Positions 1,261 through 31,189 of a stretch of DNA of 39,074 nt are shown here, piece by piece. Within the stretch, counting starts at the first letter, position 1, and each line of letters opens with the position of its first letter. Source of the DNA: a virus (Duplodnaviria > Caudoviricetes); the IMG/VR virus record IMGVR_UViG_3300028586_000742, positions 1 through 39,074 of that record. One strand, given 5' to 3'. A model generated the notes under the pieces. The model searched no databases, was not told where the DNA came from, and was given only the letters and a program-made list of their open reading frames with translations. Position numbers and translations under genes: made by a program.

Positions 1261-2262
1261 ATGAAAATTAATGCATTATCTCCAGTCCTTTTCTTCCACT
1301 TTGAAGACTCTTCGAAAGGCTTCGAATTTGAAGATCTGTCTTATTTCTCCAATCCTAACCGATTGATGCCTTTCACTTCAAATCCTAGCTTAATGGCAGC
1401 TGTTGGTACAATAGACCTTAACACAATAAGAAGATTAGTAACTGTAAGTTATTCCGGAGATATTTCGTCTCTTCAAAATGGGTGGGCATTAAAGTGTCCA
1501 CATCCACATCCGATATCTGCTACGTTAAACTCCCACGTAAACAGAGCCCTAAGTTATTTATGGTTTATCAAAGACAATAGTGTATACTCGCAAAATTGTT
1601 ACGTCCACTCTCCTGAGCTAAACAATTGCTTTCGAAATGTTCGCAGTATGATGATCAGTAATTCCGCCGGGGAATATTCTGATACTTACTTTACCTTGGA
1701 TGAACTTAGCCAATTGGATGATTTGTCGAAGAGAATAAAATCAGTAAGTAGCTTTGATCCCACCAATTTAGAACCCGGCTTTCCTTTTAGCCTAGATAAT
1801 CCAGCTGTGGCATCAGCACACAATTATCAGAACTACAACAACTCAATAAACAGACTAACAAGAGCCTTAAGATTTTTAGATCTTGCACGAAGTACATCAT
1901 ACCTGCCACAGAAAATTTCATTTTATATGTCCATCTTGGAATGCTTGTTTACAACTGATAGTTCAGAAGTTACTCATAAAGTCTCAGAACGCGCTTCGTG
2001 TTTTTTGGGTGGAATCAAGAGCGACAAAAGGGATCGATTTACATATATAAAGCTAGCATACAAGATAAGGTCTACATATCTTCATGGACAGGTATTTAAG
2101 GCCGACCTTCATTCAAGAAATGAATGGGTGGTAATTTCATTAAAAATAGATAGTTTAATACGAGAGGTATTGAGAAAGATCATTTTTGGCGATCCTGCAG
2201 TTTTTCTTGAAAAGAAGAATGATCTTTTGGAGAAAATGTTTGATGAGATGTTGTTTGAATAA
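1261..2262 (+). CDS. ApeA-like HEPN domain protein (putative RNase, candidate defence moron)
   Basis: C-terminal ILECLF...KVSERAS...AYKIRSTYLHG with RxxxxH at 2068-2085; AT-rich. Confidence 0.8.
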   Translation: MKINALSPVLFFHFEDSSKGFEFEDLSYFSNPNRLMPFTSNPSLMAAVGTIDLNTIRRLVTVSYSGDISSLQNGWALKCPHPHPISATLNSHVNRALSYLWFIKDNSVYSQNCYVHSPELNNCFRNVRSMMISNSAGEYSDTYFTLDELSQLDDLSKRIKSVSSFDPTNLEPGFPFSLDNPAVASAHNYQNYNNSINRLTRALRFLDLARSTSYLPQKISFYMSILECLFTTDSSEVTHKVSERASCFLGGIKSDKRDRFTYIKLAYKIRSTYLHGQVFKADLHSRNEWVVISLKIDSLIREVLRKIIFGDPAVFLEKKNDLLEKMFDEMLFE

Positions 2263-5936: not shown

Positions 5937-8900
5937 CTAAGGTGCAACGTATGGCTGTACTGGCATATCGAGCAATGCCTGAACCGCTGGTGTAGGCGTG
6001 TAGTCTACGAAAAACAGTCCAGGGAATTCTTTGAAGGTTGGGAAGTTAATTCCACTGTCTGCGATACCTACGCACCAGGTTGTTATTCCATATAGGTTTG
6101 CACGCGGAATCACTTTCTGGGCAATCCTGTAATTTTCTGTGAAGAACATAGCATGTGCCGCTAACCTTGGTGGTGATGATCTGAAAATTTCCAGTTCAAT
6201 TTGGGTACGCGATTTGAACCGATAAACAGGATTTCCGTTGCTATCTACTTTCGGGTTGCCATTGCTGTCCAGCTCAGGGATGGGATTCCCCTGGTCATCG
6301 CGTAACCATGTTTCAGAAGTGGCCCAGGTTGGGGAAGTAGCAGAGCCTGGCTTAAGGATTACATCCAGTTCGGATATATGAATTAACAACCCTGAATTAC
6401 CTAATACCCGTAACCTGCGTTCATAATCTACCATATTCAGCGCAACACTGCTGTGCGATTGCGATCCGATCCCGTCGATTACGATCCCTCTGGTTGCCGC
6501 CTCTTTGATGTAGTTGACAACAGTAGGCCCTTTAGCATTAGAATCTTCAAAATCGAAATCATTGATGAACTGCGGAACATTCGGCATGATGCTCCTTACG
6601 GTGGAAACGGTTACATCAATCCAATCCGGAAGAACACGGCCCCAGAATGAAGATTTGAGGCCGTTCGGTCCGAAAGCCTCGTTAATGGAGTCAATTCCCG
6701 TTATTCTGTCTACATATGGAAGCAGATAGGTGAGCAGAGTTGTGATGTGATTGATAAGGAAGTCTCTAAACTGCTGTTGCGTCCATGTCCCTTCCTTATC
6801 CTTCAGAAATTGTGCATTCACATCTGCCCAAGTGATGCAGTGAATGTGGATATCCAGATCGTAAGCCACGGCTTCAGCAAGGATTGCATCAATTTCAGCG
6901 TACCTAAACTGGCCTTCCTGTGGTTGAAAGATGTGCATTTTAAAGCAGTTTTCACCGCCAATACGCCTTACATGCTTCCTGTAGGCTGATTTGTATTCAG
7001 GGGTGCGATCCTTGAAACCATCCTTCAACGTTGCGCCAACTGTAAGATCAAACTTTTCCTTTAATGCAGTAGGTGCTACAGGCGGCTCGGTTGGTGGATC
7101 CACTGGCGGTGTTACGCCTCCACCTCCACCATCAGTAGGCGGGGTAACGCTGATCGGATTTGGTCCGGGTAGATTTGCCTCTTCAAAAACGATCCAAATG
7201 CCCTGTACATCATAAGGTGAGCGTGGTAGAGTGATCAGATTTAGCCAGTAGTAACCATTGCCCATTTGAAAGTTGAATTTCATACCACCAACGATTGCAA
7301 ACCTCGGAACGCCGGAAGTAACCCGAAGTTCCCATGTCACCGGGGTAATCAGAGGCGGGGCAATCACGGTACCGCCAGTACCAAAACGATCTGTACTGAG
7401 CAGGATACTTTCCTTAAGTACGACTGATCTGCCATTTACTCTGCTGGTCCAAAGGATTTCAATGTTTACTGCAGGAAGTCTGGTTTTATCGAAAAACGCT
7501 TTGTAGGTAGCTGGAATCAATCCCGTTTTGTCGGCATCCGTTTCATTTGGATCCGGTTTGTATTCGATCAGCTGTGCATCGGTGGCGTAGGAGTTGACCA
7601 TCGTTCTGCACTGCAGGGTAGCATTAATGTAGCTGCTGTTGCCGGATGAAAGGTTATAGGGCAACTTTTCAATAAGTGCGATGGTGTAATTCCCCTCTTT
7701 GCTGAAAAAGGAGATCTTCTGGTAAATCTTAATCCGAGCAAGCAGGAAAGCCGGTATAGTCATCTTCAGCTTTACGGTCTTACTTTCGTTTTTGAACTTG
7801 TACCAGGTTGCATCATCCAGGCTCAGCTCCACCGGCTCTGCTTGTGGGAAGACCAGACCACCGGCAAGCGTTTTCATTCCGCGGTAACGCAAGAAACGTA
7901 AGGGGAATGACTCTGATCTGTTCTTATAATAGTACGTGCGCTGCTTAGTGGCCGGCATCGAATAAGTCTCGAATGTTTTCACCTTCAAGGTGGATGATTC
8001 CATGTCGATCGGCTTTTCCTTATCGCCGATGGTCAGGCGGTTTGTAGGAATGTAGGTGTTTTCGTTTTCCGCATTTGGATCAAGGAACAACTCATCATCT
8101 TCATCAGGCTTTAAAATGATTGAATAGCCGGTTACCTGCGGCACATCAATTTCGTCGATAGCAGTAACATAATCGGAGAGATCCTGCACGGTAAAGCTGT
8201 TCAGCACGCTGCTGGGCGTTACAACATTCACCTTGCCGGTTATCATATCAAAGTTGCAGCTGATCTGGAAACGCTCCTTGATTCTGATCAGGAAATCTTT
8301 CAGGGTTAGATCTTGCGGAAGGTAGGTGAACGATCCATTCATCAAAGTGCTGGACATGATCCTGGTGTAAACAAAGATTTCATCAGATTCGGAATCCTTC
8401 AGGTATTCGCCATCGATGGAAAAACCAAGGAACTCCACTACTTTCTGCAGCAGGTACTTAAGTTTGAAAAACGGGCACCAAGCTGAGGGCACAAATTTCT
8501 GTGCCGCATGATCCCATTTGTTGATCACAAACTCAGTTTCAGTTTCGCTTTCGCTCCAAGCTTCATTGTAGATTGGAAAAAAGCTATAACCATAGTCTTT
8601 CGGGTTTTTGCAAACGGCCAGCATGTGCGCTGTATCATAGGGCAGCTCCATAGCATCACCGGTGTAGATCTGGCAAAGCTTTACCTGTTTGGTTTGTTCC
8701 GATAACGCACCAAAGTTTATCCGGAACAGCGCATCGATGTCGTTGCCGGTAATTTTGTAGGTCAGCTTTCCGGTGTGTAGCGGTGTACCATCCACCAGGA
8801 GCGTAGCATCCTGAGCGTACTGCTCAATGGCCGCTTCCACCAGGTGCGCATTTTTGATGAACTCCTGATTGCCTGGGGTAAGCGGCAATTTAAATCCGTA

Positions 8901-9020
8901 GGTGACATCAGCGAAAAGCTGGGTATCTTCGTTAAACAGCGGATTGTTCCGTTCGATAGGGATGATCGTGTCGGTGTGCAGATCCGCTGTTTGAGAAAGG
9001 GCGTTTAGAAGTTGGAGCAT
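5937..9020 (-). CDS. Minor tail protein fused to a C-terminal GH10 (endo-beta-1,4-xylanase-like) domain
   Basis: N-terminal phage tail-like region; Pro/Gly linker at about 7068-7176; GH10 motifs ENCFK, HCITW, DSINEA, INDF, DGIGSQSH, IHISELDV, GITTW, PGLF. Confidence 0.85.
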   Translation of the reverse strand: MLQLLNALSQTADLHTDTIIPIERNNPLFNEDTQLFADVTYGFKLPLTPGNQEFIKNAHLVEAAIEQYAQDATLLVDGTPLHTGKLTYKITGNDIDALFRINFGALSEQTKQVKLCQIYTGDAMELPYDTAHMLAVCKNPKDYGYSFFPIYNEAWSESETETEFVINKWDHAAQKFVPSAWCPFFKLKYLLQKVVEFLGFSIDGEYLKDSESDEIFVYTRIMSSTLMNGSFTYLPQDLTLKDFLIRIKERFQISCNFDMITGKVNVVTPSSVLNSFTVQDLSDYVTAIDEIDVPQVTGYSIILKPDEDDELFLDPNAENENTYIPTNRLTIGDKEKPIDMESSTLKVKTFETYSMPATKQRTYYYKNRSESFPLRFLRYRGMKTLAGGLVFPQAEPVELSLDDATWYKFKNESKTVKLKMTIPAFLLARIKIYQKISFFSKEGNYTIALIEKLPYNLSSGNSSYINATLQCRTMVNSYATDAQLIEYKPDPNETDADKTGLIPATYKAFFDKTRLPAVNIEILWTSRVNGRSVVLKESILLSTDRFGTGGTVIAPPLITPVTWELRVTSGVPRFAIVGGMKFNFQMGNGYYWLNLITLPRSPYDVQGIWIVFEEANLPGPNPISVTPPTDGGGGGVTPPVDPPTEPPVAPTALKEKFDLTVGATLKDGFKDRTPEYKSAYRKHVRRIGGENCFKMHIFQPQEGQFRYAEIDAILAEAVAYDLDIHIHCITWADVNAQFLKDKEGTWTQQQFRDFLINHITTLLTYLLPYVDRITGIDSINEAFGPNGLKSSFWGRVLPDWIDVTVSTVRSIMPNVPQFINDFDFEDSNAKGPTVVNYIKEAATRGIVIDGIGSQSHSSVALNMVDYERRLRVLGNSGLLIHISELDVILKPGSATSPTWATSETWLRDDQGNPIPELDSNGNPKVDSNGNPVYRFKSRTQIELEIFRSSPPRLAAHAMFFTENYRIAQKVIPRANLYGITTWCVGIADSGINFPTFKEFPGLFFVDYTPTPAVQALLDMPVQPYVAP

Positions 9021-18622: not shown

Positions 18623-18940
18623 GGGCCCAGGAACTACCTTTTATAAGCACTTACTTTCCTTAAAATTTTCCAGCACATTTCAATGAAGCGGTAAAAACGC
18701 TAATGCGCTCAAAATCAATCACAAAAACCAACATTTAGGAAAGATCACTTACACTGCCACACGATTGACCACGCCACGCACTGAGGGGGAAGGGAAAGCC
18801 CGGGGCCGACTTTGGGGATATATGATAGGGCCTTTTTAGTGCAAAAACCACCTTTAAAGTACCTTGAAGGCAGTTGCACGAGTGAACATAGGGAAAGTAT
18901 CTCACGAGCTTCACATGAGGAAAATTTCTTATCTTCCTGT

Positions 18941-20023
18941 ATGACAGAAGACAACAACTTAGAAGATATATTCTCCAGATATGGTGGAATCATACAGCCT
19001 AATGATTACAAGGAAAAGTTTAGCAACATCATGAATATTTGCATGAATGTAGAGGAAAGACTAAACGGTAGAAAGAATTTCGATTCCTCGGCTCCAAACA
19101 TCAAGGTATGTTTAATTAACAACTCAGAAATGAATGCCACCATAAAAAAGTATGGTGATACATATTACATCGGCGTTTTTGCCGGCACTTTCTTAGTTCT
19201 TGATAATTTATTTATGAGAATGCTAGCACATCCTGGGCTTTTTCAGGAGTTCGGCAATGTCGGTGTTGAGAAGGAACCGGAAAAGGTTTACGAGATAAGA
19301 ACATCCGACTACGTTCATGTTTACGATTTAATGGAAGGTATGATTTACCCCCAAGATGTCGATAGAGTGTTAGTTGCGAACGAATTAAAGACCTTAGTGG
19401 TAAATTTTATCATGTACCACGAATATGGTCATATTATGAACGGCCATTATGATTATGTCCATGCACTGCATGCATATGCATTCAGTGAATCTCCTGTTCC
19501 GGGTGTTGAACCACCGGCTCTTGATTCGGTTTTTTCTCAAGTTTGTGAATTAGACGCAGACATGTATGCTAATGACCAAATGTTATTGAAACTAGGCGCT
19601 TTAGTTATGGATGTTGCAGATCTTAGAAAAATTTATAGGGATCTAAAAACGGCAGTGTACCTATATTCGTTTGCATTATATAGCTACAGGAAATTGATGG
19701 ACGGACCTCAAAGTAAAGAGTTTGACATTAACGTAGCCACCCACCCACCAGCTTCCGTTAGGCAGTCAAACTTGGTATTAGAAACATACGACCATTTCTC
19801 CCGTGAAGAGGCGGTAAAAATATCGGAAGAAGAAAGAAAGGTTATATGTGAATATGCGATCAAAGCGGCTGTGGATGCAGAACATGCATTTGAGACAATA
19901 ACTGAACAGAAATTTGGAGGCGAATACAAGTTTTTCGAAAAAGAAATCTCTGCTTATATGAATAATATGAATACTCAACATCCTGGTGTCCGTAAGGCGC
20001 TGGAACCGTTCGTTTTGAGGTAG
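18941..20023 (+). CDS. Lit/peptidase U49-like (M48-related) HEXXH zinc metallopeptidase, moron
   Basis: YHEYGHI (19415-19435), CELDAD, ATHPPASVR; AT-rich, opposite strand; ATG 18941 preferred over TTG 18812. Confidence 0.75.
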   Translation: MTEDNNLEDIFSRYGGIIQPNDYKEKFSNIMNICMNVEERLNGRKNFDSSAPNIKVCLINNSEMNATIKKYGDTYYIGVFAGTFLVLDNLFMRMLAHPGLFQEFGNVGVEKEPEKVYEIRTSDYVHVYDLMEGMIYPQDVDRVLVANELKTLVVNFIMYHEYGHIMNGHYDYVHALHAYAFSESPVPGVEPPALDSVFSQVCELDADMYANDQMLLKLGALVMDVADLRKIYRDLKTAVYLYSFALYSYRKLMDGPQSKEFDINVATHPPASVRQSNLVLETYDHFSREEAVKISEEERKVICEYAIKAAVDAEHAFETITEQKFGGEYKFFEKEISAYMNNMNTQHPGVRKALEPFVLR

Positions 20024-21766: not shown

Positions 21767-22418
21767 GCTCTTCAGTGTAGTTTACGGATTCACTTTCGGA
21801 GATGATCAGGTCAATCTTACTCTTTTTACGTTTTGCCAAGATACGCGCAACAGCTGCTTCCGGATCATCCACTTTAGGGAATCCAAGTTCACACGGATCT
21901 ACCACCAGGTTAAATGATGGTAAGTGAATGTTTTCGTAATCCGGACGTTCCTGCTCTTCCTTCAGTAATCCCTTGATCTCGGCTAGTGCTTTGTAGAAAG
22001 CAGCAGCGCTTTTGAAGTCACCTAGGCTTTTTGCCTCGAACATCATTTGCTCGCCCCATTCGATCATTACCCCACGTGCAAAATCGCGATCATCTTTCGA
22101 GTAGGTCGAGAGAAAGAACTTCTTTGCGTTGGCTATATCATCATAGGCCGTACGATATGACACACTAAATTCTTGCACCAGGTAAGCTGCAAGTTTATTG
22201 AATGTATAAGGTTGGGTGATCTCTTTACCACCCTTTACAACCAGGTAACCATCACGAAGTAAGCTATCAGCCTTTTGCCAACGCTTCAGCATGTTTTGTA
22301 GCTGCTCAGGCAGTTGATCAACCTGATGTTCAAGCCATGCCCGTAAAATAATGTCGTAGGTAGTTTCTTTCTTGATATCACGGGGCTTTAGTAGCCCGGC
22401 AAGCATTGGGACACTCAT
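21756..22418 (-). CDS. Probable terminase small subunit
   Basis: HTH-like segment LVQEFSVSYRTAYDDI; overlaps the terL start. Confidence 0.55.
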   Translation of the reverse strand: MSVPMLAGLLKPRDIKKETTYDIILRAWLEHQVDQLPEQLQNMLKRWQKADSLLRDGYLVVKGGKEITQPYTFNKLAAYLVQEFSVSYRTAYDDIANAKKFFLSTYSKDDRDFARGVMIEWGEQMMFEAKSLGDFKSAAAFYKALAEIKGLLKEEQERPDYENIHLPSFNLVVDPCELGFPKVDDPEAAVARILAKRKKSKIDLIISESESVNYTEEHGG

Positions 22419-23104
22419 TCTTTAACTGTTCCTCCTAATTCTTTAATTCGTTGGACATTCTTTTGGATCAGCGCCTTTGTGGCTTCCACATCCCGACATC
22501 CTTCGGACTTCAGGCGGGTTCGCGCCTTGGAAGTGCTTTGGCGTAGAAGCTGAATTTCCTCTGCAGCCGGGCGGATTACCTTTACTTCAGCCTTCACCAG
22601 TGGAAAGTGGCCGTACTCATCGTAATAGTCAATCATCTTCCAGGTATCCTGCAGCTTTCCGTGCAGGGAAAGTATTTGCTTGGCGGTTTGGTGCAAGAAA
22701 GCAGGATTAGTGCCCAGATCCAGTTCAGTACGGTTGCGCTCAATCTGGCGGTACAAGGTTTGAATGTATTCTTTCAATTGCAGGTACTTCGGATATTCAG
22801 AAGTGTTATTGGTAGGTGCAGCACCCGGAGTGGGTGCGTCCGGTTTTTCCCCCTCTTGCACATTGACAGGAGGGGGTTCAAAGGTAACTATAGAGGCGGG
22901 GGGTGCATCGTTGGTGATGGCAGGTGGAGCAGGAGCGAGATCCTTCAGATCTGCTCCAAGCTTTTTGATGTTGTACGCCGTGGCTCCCTGGGTATTCAGT
23001 AGGGATTTGAAAAGGGAGTTCTTGCCGTATTTGATATACAGCGCTTTCCCGGTTTCAAAATCTTTACCTGATCGCAGCCATGCGTTTATTTCCTGCATGA
23101 TCAA
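22415..23104 (-). CDS. Hypothetical phage protein
   Basis: EINAWLRSGKDFETGKALY N-terminus, Pro-rich linker, coiled coil; start may be ATG 23098. Confidence 0.7.
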   Translation of the reverse strand: MIMQEINAWLRSGKDFETGKALYIKYGKNSLFKSLLNTQGATAYNIKKLGADLKDLAPAPPAITNDAPPASIVTFEPPPVNVQEGEKPDAPTPGAAPTNNTSEYPKYLQLKEYIQTLYRQIERNRTELDLGTNPAFLHQTAKQILSLHGKLQDTWKMIDYYDEYGHFPLVKAEVKVIRPAAEEIQLLRQSTSKARTRLKSEGCRDVEATKALIQKNVQRIKELGGTVKE

Positions 23105-23143
23105 AGGTGCTCAGAACAGGGAAAGTGCGAAAGGACAGGTAAA
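23102..23143 (-). promoter_or_regulatory. Putative late promoter copy 4
   Basis: - strand TTTACCTGTCCTTT-N20-CACCTTTG; shares TTTACCTGTCCTTTCGCAC (19 nt) with copy 3. Confidence 0.72.
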
Positions 23144-23152
23144 TTGGGTATG

Positions 23153-23187
23153 CAATTAAGCCTCTGTGGTGTGCAGAGGCTTAATTG
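23153..23187. terminator. 14-bp perfect hairpin at the end of the three-gene moron
   Basis: CAATTAAGCCTCTG-tggtgtg-CAGAGGCTTAATTG overlapping the stop codon at 23181. Confidence 0.6.
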
Positions 23188-23822
23188 TTACAAAAACAGG
23201 GATCATCGAGGCCAGGATGATCAACAATTTCTATACTAGCAAAATTTACAAAAGCAGCTCGAGCATTTGCACCGATTTTTGCAGCAATTTTCTTAATAGC
23301 TTTTGGATCGTTTTTGGCAAATTCCTCCAATGTTTGACCTTCAACATCCCAAAGAATGGAATAATGCCAAAAATTACCCTTTGTTGGAGTATGCTTCACG
23401 TAACATTTTGCATTATAAGAATTTTCTTCCAGTTTGATAGAAGCACTAATTTTTGCTAAAAATCCAATTTTTATCCCCCAATAAGTGCGTGCTTGATTTA
23501 GTTCAAAATGGTCTGGATGGATAGGGGTAAGACCTTCCTCATCAGGAGGACAATAAGCGTTAAAAAGTACTTTGCCTTCATTGGTGAATTCGATCTTGGT
23601 ATGTTCAAGTTTGTATATCCCAAGCAAACATGTAGACAAGTCGTGAATATGTTCTCTAGGGCTACAAATTCGATTAACGGCTAACTTTCCTGATCCGTCC
23701 AAAATCGTTTCTGTGACATTTGCTCTGTCAACATACCGAATAAGATAGTGTTCATTTATATCGCAGTCTATGATCTTATATTCCTTCTTAGGTAAAAGCG
23801 TGTCTGGATACACTTGAGGCAT
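23181..23822 (-). CDS. Putative ADP-ribosyltransferase-like toxin
   Basis: Ordered motifs YLIR, DLST, HTPTKGNFWH resembling R-S-H ART/RES-like folds; AT-rich. Confidence 0.45.
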   Translation of the reverse strand: MPQVYPDTLLPKKEYKIIDCDINEHYLIRYVDRANVTETILDGSGKLAVNRICSPREHIHDLSTCLLGIYKLEHTKIEFTNEGKVLFNAYCPPDEEGLTPIHPDHFELNQARTYWGIKIGFLAKISASIKLEENSYNAKCYVKHTPTKGNFWHYSILWDVEGQTLEEFAKNDPKAIKKIAAKIGANARAAFVNFASIEIVDHPGLDDPCFCNN

Positions 23823-24495
23823 TAATCTTTGTTGTTTTTTGTTGAACCAATGTTTTGCTTTTTGGTAAAAAATAAGAGTCAGCGTCCTCTAAAGAAGCTG
23901 GGAAATCGACAATCATATTTCCGTGAAAAACGCTCATTACAACCTTATCTGAGGCGTTAATGTTAGTTGTTTGGTGTTGAACTAACGTCCTACTTTTTGG
24001 TACAAAATGAGAATAGGCCCCTTCTAAGCTGCCTGAATAATCTACAGTCATGTCTGCTGCTTTAAACGCAGTGAGTACAACTTCATCTAAATCAGTATTT
24101 TTGTAGTCTACAAAATGCTCTAAGTAATAGTTTGCGCTGTCTAATGTAAAAGAATACAAAACACTACCATCGTATGTAGGTTGAACGGTTAAATTTACAG
24201 GTCTTAATTTTGAGATAAATTCCGATAGTTCTTCTATTTGACGTCTTAATCTCTCATCAGAAAATGTGGTGAGCGCATGATAACTAACTCTATCTCTATT
24301 TAAGATACGGAAAAAATGTTCAACCAAAGGATTTTCTTTATAAGATTTGATTGCACTACTCTCTTGCCGATTTAGGTAAAATGCTCCAATTGCAGTAGAT
24401 GTGTTTATCATATTGTTAGAACAAATTACTTCAGGAATGACACCGTTTAAGAACGTTGCATCTGCTTTTTCTTTTATATCTGCTGGAACCCCCAT
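23788..24495 (-). CDS. Hypothetical protein, antitoxin-like, with duplicated C-terminal repeat
   Basis: VQPTYDGSVLYSF motif; two ~45-aa repeats; 35-nt overlap with the toxin-like gene. Confidence 0.5.
   Translation of the reverse strand: MGVPADIKEKADATFLNGVIPEVICSNNMINTSTAIGAFYLNRQESSAIKSYKENPLVEHFFRILNRDRVSYHALTTFSDERLRRQIEELSEFISKLRPVNLTVQPTYDGSVLYSFTLDSANYYLEHFVDYKNTDLDEVVLTAFKAADMTVDYSGSLEGAYSHFVPKSRTLVQHQTTNINASDKVVMSVFHGNMIVDFPASLEDADSYFLPKSKTLVQQKTTKINASSVSRHAFT
23815..24087. repeat. Diverged tandem duplication (about 135/138 bp)
   Basis: Both units start TGAGGC(A/G)TTAAT at 23815 and 23950; encode ...SLEGAYSHFVPKSRTLVQHQTTNINAS and ...SLEDADSYFLPKSKTLVQQKTTKINAS. Confidence 0.85.
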
Positions 24496-24497
24496 AA

Positions 24498-24845
24498 TTA
24501 CACTTTTTGTTTGCTTATATCTCCAAATTTTTCCTCGAACTCGTTAATATGTTGTTGCATCCAAGTCACAACAGTTTTAGCAACCTCTAGATCCAAAAGT
24601 AAACCAAATTGAACTTCTCTTACTGAAGAAGGCTCACTCGGAGAAGCCGGCACTGGGTGCGGTGCTAAATCATTACCAATGATTTCGTGTTGTACAGACT
24701 TTGGTAATTCGAGTGTATCCAGAAAGAAATTCATATTTAATTGGCCTTTAGCCGTCACGCCACCAAAAACTCCGCTTGCCCAAACTGTTCTAAAGTCCAC
24801 GTTTTTTACATTTTTGAAGGTATAAAGCTTATTCGGTTTGCCCAT
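24498..24845 (-). CDS. DUF3467-like small protein (chaperone-like)
   Basis: FRTVWASGVFGGVT...NFF...VREVQFGLLLDLEVAKTVVTWM pattern, 115 aa. Confidence 0.5.
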   Translation of the reverse strand: MGKPNKLYTFKNVKNVDFRTVWASGVFGGVTAKGQLNMNFFLDTLELPKSVQHEIIGNDLAPHPVPASPSEPSSVREVQFGLLLDLEVAKTVVTWMQQHINEFEEKFGDISKQKV

Positions 24846-24985
24846 ATGTTCTATTGATGTATTAAATACAAGTGATAAAGTTAAAAGTTTACAAATATGG
24901 AAATAAATTACATATAAATATTGAGAATAATATGTAAAAAATGTTAAATATAGATGCCGTCACCTTCAGGTATTCACTGCTATAT

Positions 24986-25018
24986 AAAAAAAAAGCGGCC
25001 ATCTCTGAACCGCTTTTT
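24986..25018. terminator. Bidirectional intrinsic terminator
   Basis: A9-GCGG...CCGC-T5, downstream of the capsid/tail tube operon. Confidence 0.75.
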
Positions 25019-25051
25019 AGCCTAACCTAACTATTAAAACAAACTGACGTT

Positions 25052-25237
25052 TTACTTTTTATTCACCGGTACTGCCCTCAAATAGTCAGTGCCAGCTTTA
25101 ACCAGTTGTTCCGCCTGGTCTACGGTCATTGTTCTGAAGTCAACATCACCGATCCTGCTGTGCAGAACAGGACTGGTGGTATTGATGACTTCGAACTTTC
25201 CTTCCAATGCTGGACTTAATGTGAACTGCTTTTTCAT
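25052..25237 (-). CDS. Small hypothetical phage protein
   Basis: 61 aa, last gene before the terminator. Confidence 0.65.
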   Translation of the reverse strand: MKKQFTLSPALEGKFEVINTTSPVLHSRIGDVDFRTMTVDQAEQLVKAGTDYLRAVPVNKK

Positions 25238-29800: not shown

Positions 29801-30127
29801 CTACTTATCTCTGACCGGATTGTAACGAAACTCAAAGGCAGTAAGCATCCTTTTAACGAAAGCGTCACATTCGGCCTGTGCTCTCTTTAAATCTTCAAAT
29901 TTCCGCTCTATAGCGTGATGTGGATACAACAGGGTAAAGTTGATATGTTTTTCTAAGCCAAGACCTCCAAATACCACCCGTTCATTACACTCCATAAATT
30001 CTCTGGGAGTGTACCAACATTTCCTTTCTTGTGAATAGATGATGCAACCGGCATCAAATGCCTTCATGGCTACGTTAATCTTATCCTTGTACGCTTGGCT
30101 GTTCTTGTCCTGTAAATCGTCTTGCAT
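29801..30127 (-). CDS. Hypothetical protein
   Basis: ATG 30127 (MQDDLQ...) lies just downstream of a TATTTTTG box; WYTPREF motif. Confidence 0.6.
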   Translation of the reverse strand: MQDDLQDKNSQAYKDKINVAMKAFDAGCIIYSQERKCWYTPREFMECNERVVFGGLGLEKHINFTLLYPHHAIERKFEDLKRAQAECDAFVKRMLTAFEFRYNPVRDK

Positions 30128-30145
30128 GATGGTAGGTTGATGCCT

Positions 30146-30168
30146 CAAAAATACTAATATTTTTAGTA
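30146..30168 (-). promoter_or_regulatory. TAnnTTTG -7 box overlapped by a perfect TACTAA-N5-TTAGTA palindrome
   Basis: - strand TATTTTTG at 30146-30153; TACTAA-tattt-TTAGTA at 30152-30168. Confidence 0.6.
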
Positions 30169-30268
30169 ATTTAATATTGTTTAAACCTTGGAGCGCAATA
30201 AATGATTCGTTAAATTGAAGTGTGTTGGGCAATATCCTGGCATAGTCTGGGATCAAAGCTATTCTGTT

Positions 30269-30550
30269 ATGGAGATTAAAGACAGGCAATCATTTATGAT
30301 CGTTTTCGAAGATCGTTATAAGCGCTTTATTGAAGATATTGAATATGAATATAGTCAAGATCTTGATGTCCACCGGTACTGGCTCCGGCTAAAGAATGGA
30401 TTTACAAAGCCAGACTTTACCACAAGTGGAATTTATCCGTTCATAAACGAGATGCAACGGGTCTTCGATGATGAACTGACTATCTGGGTGCGGGCATATG
30501 ATGAGCCCAGAGAAACCTCTTGGTCGATTGATGTTAATGGACTTTATTAA
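30269..30550 (+). CDS. Hypothetical protein (accessory)
   Basis: Acidic/aromatic 93-aa ORF from ATG 30269, divergent from 30127. Confidence 0.5.
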   Translation: MEIKDRQSFMIVFEDRYKRFIEDIEYEYSQDLDVHRYWLRLKNGFTKPDFTTSGIYPFINEMQRVFDDELTIWVRAYDEPRETSWSIDVNGLY

Positions 30551-30871
30551 ACCTGTTAGTTCTTCCGGTGGTCTATCGACTGTGTAATACTTAGTGTAAT
30601 TCTTACACATTAATTTACGTTTATTTAATAGTTGTTGACTGATATTACCAAAATAGTACTTTTGTGATGAGAGCGTTAATTTAAGATGGGGCGACCGGTA
30701 TGGTTGCCCTTTTCTTTTTACCAGCTTTCTCATCTTGTCACATCGACTTTCACGATCGCTTCTGCACTCCCGAGCAATAATGTATAAACGCTTCTCGATC
30801 AATGAATGAACAAGCTGATATATGCATCTGAGCACTTAGTTTTATGGCTTCCAAGTATAAACTAGAACAGA

Positions 30872-31189
30872 ATGCAACAAGTAATTTTCCAAAATACTGA
30901 CTTCGGGTACAGTATGTCTGAGGTACTATCAGATCAATCAATGGAAGTCGAACTGGCCATCATAGCAAAGCAAGAAGCTCAAGTAATCTGCATCATCGAT
31001 GTTGAGACAAACTGCTTAACCTATATCGACGAGTTCATCGATATTCATCTGCAACTTATGAAAGCAAGTTACCCAAGGACCATTTTTGGCAGGATACTGA
31101 ATAAGTCTTCATTCAAAAATAAACCACCCTATTCATTTATACTTTCGCTAGAGGCTTGCAAGTTTGGATCTGTTGCAAATTCCTTCTAG
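30872..31189 (+). CDS. Hypothetical protein (accessory)
   Basis: 105-aa ATG ORF, AT-rich. Confidence 0.45.
   Translation: MQQVIFQNTDFGYSMSEVLSDQSMEVELAIIAKQEAQVICIIDVETNCLTYIDEFIDIHLQLMKASYPRTIFGRILNKSSFKNKPPYSFILSLEACKFGSVANSF

Follow-up and report, generated by a model that had tools for sequence, protein, structure and literature searches.

A three-gene phage cassette with a predicted ADP-ribosyltransferase-fold toxin, apparently an undescribed variant of tripartite toxin–antitoxin systems

The viral record IMGVR_UViG_3300028586_000742 (Duplodnaviria; Caudoviricetes), analyzed here over its whole length of 39,074 nt and hereafter called the window, carries a cassette of three genes on its minus strand. 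An earlier note, made from the letters alone, had read them as a chaperone, an antitoxin and a toxin with an ADP-ribosyltransferase (ART) fold, analogous to CmdTAC. Our results point to a predicted antitoxin–toxin pair headed by a third gene, apparently an undescribed variant of tripartite toxin–antitoxin systems, and the single cassette is less important than the pattern it exposes. In reading order, the genes are:

24498..24845, minus strand: gene 1, 115 aa, a divergent DUF3467 relative; its predicted fold, a beta-meander with a C-terminal helix, weakly resembles COMM/PC4, and it is a candidate to guard or sense the antitoxin.
23788..24495, minus strand: gene 2, predicted antitoxin of 235 aa; its N-terminal ~55 aa are unconserved and are followed by a conserved alpha/beta domain (~55–165, motif T107-x-D-x-S) and a C-terminal tail.
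23181..23822, minus strand: gene 3, 213 aa, predicted ART-fold toxin; triad R29-S63-H153 and loop H144-x-P-x3-N150.

A check of the open reading frames (ORFs) bore out the three lengths and the tight coupling claimed before, with a gap of exactly 2 nt between genes 1 and 2 and an overlap of exactly 35 nt between genes 2 and 3. The cassette is indeed AT-rich (G+C 0.364, versus 0.446 and 0.475 in the flanking phage genes).

Relatives of gene 3 lie at 68 genomic loci; 12 with too little upstream DNA were dropped and the 56 with at least 1400 nt upstream were used. With gene 2 and first-gene profiles built from these same loci, a gene 2 relative precedes the toxin gene in 53 of the 56, and in the three others (L058, L062, L065) the toxin gene is N-terminally truncated, frameshifted or fragmentary. 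Coupled neighbours and no intact toxin alone are what is expected of a type II toxin–antitoxin pair. The co-occurrence elsewhere on which the earlier note had staked its proposal was therefore found, both for gene 2 with the toxin and for the complete cassette, which recurs in a related phage (L001). The window gene 2 matches a profile built from loci headed by another family, TIGR04255, with E 3.6e-16 when it is left out of the profile. The order first gene–antitoxin–toxin holds in the window and in all complete loci inspected.

The R (YLIR), S (DLST) and HxPxxxNxxH motifs picked out in gene 3 are present and conserved beyond chance. An alignment of 139 relatives has R29 in 131 of them and H at this position in 6; S63, H144 and H153 are present in all 139, and N150 in 138. 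The triad residues R29, S63 and H153 fall on predicted strands 26–32, 62–67 and 153–160, called strands 1, 2 and 5 by inference from their order; in the ART scheme of 10.1101/2020.07.21.169896 these are the strands expected to bear a conserved polar triad (here and below, statements from cited papers refer to passages and tables of those papers). When the gene 3 model was compared with known folds, 32 of 41 rows were ART-fold proteins, and gene 3 very likely has this fold, as had been called from the motifs. We predict a NAD-consuming enzyme and consider it likely to be toxic. Foldseek with the toxin model gave no match at E ≤ 0.001 in PDB and BFVD, and the ESM Atlas gave a poor model of its own (predicted local distance difference test, pLDDT, 0.33) and no usable match. 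PDB gave nothing credible when searched by sequence with profiles of the toxin, gene 1, gene 2 and TIGR04255, Pfam produced scattered single matches only across the 139 relatives, and profile and fold comparisons of gene 3 gave no metallo-beta-lactamase (MBL)-fold hydrolase match.

In the gene 2 family, the first ~55 residues are unconserved and a conserved alpha/beta domain follows; the C-terminal tails, also unconserved, extend a median of 24 residues past the last conserved Gly (helix included). The PxxDG motif previously reported in gene 2 is present, but as a local form of the family motif T-x-D-x-S. The repetitive tail also exists, but it stems from a duplication confined to this genome:

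23815..24051, no strand assigned: 135-nt tandem duplication forming the gene 2 repetitive tail; direct repeat of 102 nt, 73% identity, spacing 135.

The 189-aa orthologue in the related phage (P0009/L001) lacks it, and at gene 2 positions 171–200 the other 59 aligned relatives have no residues. A chaperone-addiction (ChAD) role for this tail was rejected, since the duplication is private and the long unconserved stretch of the family is N-terminal.

We then consider a complex modeled from six chains (four copies of gene 1, the toxin and gene 2). The score for gene 2 was 0.65 and that of the best of three controls 0.00; replacing the toxin brought it to 0.00. In a two-chain calibration, which the six-chain job does not resemble, 116 of 157 solved complexes attained the mark used for such scores, as did 2 of 215 mismatched pairs. 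At least 29% of contacts were common between runs, and partner pLDDT was at least 52. All confident contacts join gene 2 residues 101–155 (with 64–71) to toxin residues 42–55, 121–130 and 174–194. The antitoxin beta-sheet is predicted to cradle the toxin C-terminal helix (174–194), and the near-invariant T107 faces toxin R188. The direct binding expected of a type II pair is thus seen in the model only. The triad lies outside this interface, and therefore inhibition, if real, would be indirect. No confident gene 1 contact was named, and the model is uninformative on gene 1 binding either way. Together with its place ahead of the toxin, these scores agree with the antitoxin-like character given to gene 2 before, and we regard it as very probably an antitoxin.

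The first gene is interchangeable. Among the 56 toxin loci it belongs to TIGR04255 in 48 (8 of 8 tested scored above the NCBIfam cut-off) and is DUF3467-like in one (L006, Pedobacter superstes); four loci keep gene 2 and have no first gene. Two-gene forms (L041, L042, L051, L053, L054, with L051 among the shorter loci) are natural controls for a guard model; judged by eye, the second gene of L051 opens with a segment resembling a DNA-binding one. A quick tree places the three toxins of DUF3467 type among those of TIGR04255 type, all on the same side of one branch (SH-aLRT 92; three rows of unknown context lie there too), which fits a single swap of the first gene without proving it.

Viewed from the first gene, DUF3467-like genes occur in 4 of 401 genomes of the family and 18 of 401 of the phylum, at 21 distinct places. 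They are followed by a gene 2-like and an ART-like gene at 10 places (4 recognised by profile; 6 by eye, of which two are doubtful), YafQ at 3 (2 scanned, Pfam), HicB/HicA-like genes at 4 (by eye, one toxin broken, Pfam silent), PemK at 1, an unknown pair at 1 and nothing at 2. TIGR04255 genes occupy 20 places in 18 of 251 genomes, followed by ART-like genes at 12 (mostly by eye), PemK at 2, DUF7689 at 1, a weak HEPN match at 1, unknown genes at 3 and a contig end at 1. The short ART-like genes of these sister operons are weakly linked to gene 3: 5 of 20 match at E < 0.001, with a profile–profile E of 2e-4 versus 0.32 when reversed. A search with one short ART-like relative gave no match in phages. 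At L135, L141 and L142, TIGR04255 and a short gene precede an unnamed 180–215-aa protein with a common QGD...SxxCD pattern (by eye), a candidate for another toxin family, and at L077, L123 and L124 triplets lie beside or within genes that, judged by eye, resemble those of restriction-modification or BREX-type systems.

That a single accessory gene serves several toxin families is the hallmark of SecB in toxin–antitoxin–chaperone (TAC) systems and is our main ground for a guard model. Alternatively, gene 3 could be an ART-like enzyme or scaffold that is not toxic and acts while stably bound to gene 2, for example in RNA repair like Tpt1: Tpt1 entries make up 4 of its top 12 fold rows, the predicted interface leaves the triad free and the catalytic glutamate is missing. 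We find this very improbable, because intact gene 3 never occurs without gene 2 across the 56 loci and bona fide YafQ and PemK toxins occupy its position in sister operons.

The earlier note had called gene 1 a DUF3467-like chaperone. The relationship holds: gene 1 scores 21.3 bits against DUF3467 (PF11950), below the Pfam cut-off of 25, its relative L080 exceeds that cut-off at 28.7, and the C-terminal strand-helix matches canonical DUF3467 with a profile–profile E of 1.8e-5. The chaperone role fared less well, the closest predicted folds being COMM and PC4/PUR/Whirly domains, all weak. SecB was absent from the matches listed for the gene 1 model (the best ~50 of 305 and the best 50 of 121), and Foldseek with this model was blank. 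The canonical gene is single-copy in 48 of 61 Bacteroidota genomes; at 12 loci (L096–L107) it follows rpoC in 4 (by eye) and heads an evident toxin pair in none. Gene 1, in contrast, is a sporadic paralogue of the canonical gene, which through this relation may itself have a COMM/PC4-like fold. One weak plasmid match to gene 1 was found, and no relative in INPHARED phages. Stand-alone DUF3467-like paralogues without a coupled pair occur in two high-G+C genomes (L093, L094). The idea that TIGR04255 is a fused DUF3467 dimer was unsupported, the two profiles not being similar (E 0.29).

These folds raise the chief rival to an antitoxin guard, namely that gene 1 binds nucleic acid in a PC4/PUR/Whirly-like manner, either regulating the operon or sensing single-stranded phage DNA or RNA, with toxin and antitoxin unchanged. 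We judge it unlikely. The DUF3467-like first-gene proteins are acidic (median isoelectric point 5.3, 3 of 22 above 8; TIGR04255, 0 of 36 above 8), their one conserved basic column is R76, and the top six fold rows are COMM, a domain that appears without DNA- or RNA-binding surfaces (PMC13392464).

The cassette stands in a slot that other phages fill differently:

23105..25051, no strand assigned: variable cargo slot between a 61-aa gene (25052–25237) and a 229-aa gene (22415–23104), in the phage head/terminase region.

In L001 this site is occupied by the same cassette. L003 holds there a single nucleoside-deoxyribosyltransferase-like gene with a PADLOC effector match (E 2.3e-8); this type of gene stands alone in the slot of two phages (L003 2716–3597 and L109 613–1455; Pfam E 0.002–0.004). 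At 12 further prophage places, each viewed over 1.5 kb, the slot was empty in 4, ambiguous in 1 and filled by other cargo in 7 (a relative of the L003 gene, a staphylococcal-type nuclease, a helix-turn-helix gene and four unnamed genes). The slot is a cargo hotspot, and one cargo type only has a defence-library match. Scans of viral contigs found the cassette in one phage only, and scans with the 185-aa flank gene found none.

We consider an anti-phage role probable, because the slot is filled by cargo of unrelated kinds, of which one has a PADLOC effector match, and because TIGR04255 is among DefensePredictor predictions. The module might instead serve addiction or stress control, retaining a prophage or island or slowing growth, with no role against phages. 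Most homologues do stand alone between housekeeping genes in chromosomes, and PADLOC models of known or candidate systems (2023 library) matched neither the three window proteins (E ≤ 1) nor 22 relatives (E ≤ 0.5). We find this improbable, given that the interchangeable slot is common to a defence-type effector, that the distribution of the first genes is sporadic and that the tested TAC systems and DS-42 (see below) are anti-phage.

Our favoured reading, at about even odds, is that the cassette is a tripartite toxin–antitoxin defence switch with gene 1 as guard. In such a switch, gene 2 would bind and restrain the ART-fold toxin, and gene 1 oligomers would hold the unconserved N-terminal tail of the antitoxin and keep it stable, by analogy with CmdTAC and HigBAC. 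Following the same analogy, a protein of an infecting phage would displace the tail, the antitoxin would be lost and the freed toxin, by ADP-ribosylating a host or phage target, would abort infection. Control of gene 2 by gene 1 through protein binding, drawn from these systems, could go either way. For the toxin, a nucleic acid is the leading candidate target, at somewhat less than even odds, action by destruction of NAD is doubtful and a protein target is unlikely.

The boundaries of the cassette show the following features:

24990..25018, minus strand: hairpin resembling a terminator at the end of the upstream phage head genes; it belongs to the phage backbone rather than the cassette and is also in L001 and L003.
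24846..24989, minus strand: AT-rich leader, with a ~50-nt block near-identical in L001.
23153..23187, no strand assigned: perfect 14-bp inverted repeat spanning the gene 3 stop codon and beyond.

Both structures that had been taken as insulating hairpins exist. The upstream hairpin belongs to the phage backbone, because the same hairpin stands in L003 with a different cargo gene, and it was rejected as cassette insulation. The downstream repeat extends over the stop codon, and on the coding strand no T-run follows it (one follows the L001 counterpart); it is possibly a terminator or an RNA-stabilising stem. The number of terminator-like sites in the region is in line with chance (2 observed, 1.6 expected). 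The leader is likely the promoter region of the cassette, though no promoter was identified in it beyond a stretch that agrees, with one mismatch, with a Bacteroidota -7 consensus.

Judged by its genes, the phage is temperate, because the 39-kb record encodes an integrase (1–1206) besides tail, CHAP, Clp-type head protease and capsid genes. Its host is probably a member of the Bacteroidota, since nearly all 68 genomic gene 3 relatives come from this phylum and relatives of the 229-aa flank gene occur in the Pedobacter family (11 of 301 genomes, the sole family searched for it). A 403-aa HExxH protein (18812–20023, plus strand, G+C 0.389) lies on the opposite strand directly after the 561-aa terminase-like gene. 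It has weak matches to the phage exclusion peptidase Lit (PADLOC E 2.9e-4; NCBIfam E 1.2e-3, below cut-off), and L001 has ~330 nt only at this position; the region is a second cargo slot, likely for defence. Low-G+C stretches with unnamed ORFs, at 1261–2262 (plus strand, 333 aa) and 29801–31189 (162, 148 and 105 aa), are possibly further cargo. Among the tail genes, a 1027-aa protein (5937–9020, minus strand) has a glycoside hydrolase family 10 domain (PF00331, E 1e-39) and is a possible polysaccharide-degrading tail protein. In L001 (2518–3606), a major capsid-like gene is broken by one in-frame stop (149 + 211 aa), which may be an assembly error or decay.

Among proteins with known folds, gene 3 is predicted to share the ART fold with Tse2-Tsi2, AvrPphF/HopF, Tpt1, TreX, DarT and RES toxins over ~85–110 aligned residues. 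Tse2 has an R-S-H triad. COMMD-like proteins (PMC13392464) differ from gene 1, in which the helical HN domain is missing and a long hairpin is inserted; in the passages searched, that paper mentions no toxin, operon or defence.

The proposed analogy with CmdTAC (PD-T4-9; PMC11618068; 10.1101/2024.02.24.581848) stands for the three genes, the ART-fold toxin, the third component beside a toxin–antitoxin pair and the location in a prophage variable region. It fails for the gene order, which is reversed here, the C-terminal tail and the triad. CmdT ADP-ribosylates mRNA at GA and has the H-Y-[EDQ] triad of the diphtheria-type ART clade, whereas gene 3 has R-S-H; CmdA consists of two helices and an unstructured C-terminal part, whereas gene 2 combines a folded domain with an N-terminus that is not conserved; and CmdC is SecB-like, whereas gene 1 is DUF3467-related. 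The cassette could be a true SecB-type TAC whose chaperone has diverged past recognition: the three-role logic and ART toxin are the same, and the gene 1 monomer model may be strand-swapped, so that a SecB fold is possible. Against it stand these same differences, namely the order third gene–antitoxin–toxin, the folded antitoxin with no conserved C-terminal tail, the triad and the DUF3467 relationship, and we consider it extremely improbable.

As in the TAC systems HigBAC and MqsRAC (PMC5105189), one third-gene family serves unrelated toxins and the antitoxins have an extra unconserved stretch; by this analogy, the cassette may work like TAC. In TAC the order is toxin–antitoxin–chaperone and the ChAD stretch is C-terminal, whereas here the stretch is N-terminal, no SecB-like gene was detected and two unrelated first-gene families alternate. 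The chaperone-guarded systems in the cited literature (including PMC11980606, PMC13069673 and 10.1101/2025.01.08.631726) all have SecB and a C-terminal tail. No DUF3467- or TIGR04255-headed system appeared in TAC titles and abstracts, and in full text DUF3467 appeared only in an unrelated context and TIGR04255 not at all (supplements and most subscription papers lay outside the search).

The nearest validated case is DS-42 (PRO1) of DefensePredictor (PMC13092281), a three-gene E. coli system with weak protection (Bas1, -log efficiency of plating 1.1), which is not named in the preprint or the Science main text. Its coordinates allow a ~237-aa first gene, followed by a 190-aa unknown protein and an MBL-fold hydrolase; in the same tables, TIGR04255 proteins are predicted defence genes (2 of 8 rows considered). 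Compared from table rows, DS-42 resembles the cassette in its three coupled genes, its effector in last place and the Ser/Thr-rich start of the second protein (by eye). It differs in its MBL-fold rather than ART effector and its E. coli host, and no DUF3467-like form is in the rows considered.

A broader reading, possible and somewhat on the doubtful side, is a widespread second class of guarded toxin–antitoxin systems that mirrors TAC, with a non-SecB sensor first that would hold an N-terminal addiction tail of the antitoxin, and with an ART branch forming a new R-S-H clade. With the same reserve, the sensor would be a COMM/PC4-like DUF3467 paralogue of housekeeping origin or the unrelated TIGR04255, and the effectors ART, MazF, YafQ, HicA-like, HEPN-like and probably MBL (DS-42). 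If true, two interchangeable non-SecB guards would broaden the ways in which bacteria sense phages. DUF3467 paralogues and TIGR04255 would gain a first function, and DS-42 might be explained. Because the activities of YafQ and MazF are known, the sister operons that carry them offer a cheap test of the guard idea, and co-option of the single-copy Bacteroidota DUF3467 gene into toxin modules would mirror that of SecB.
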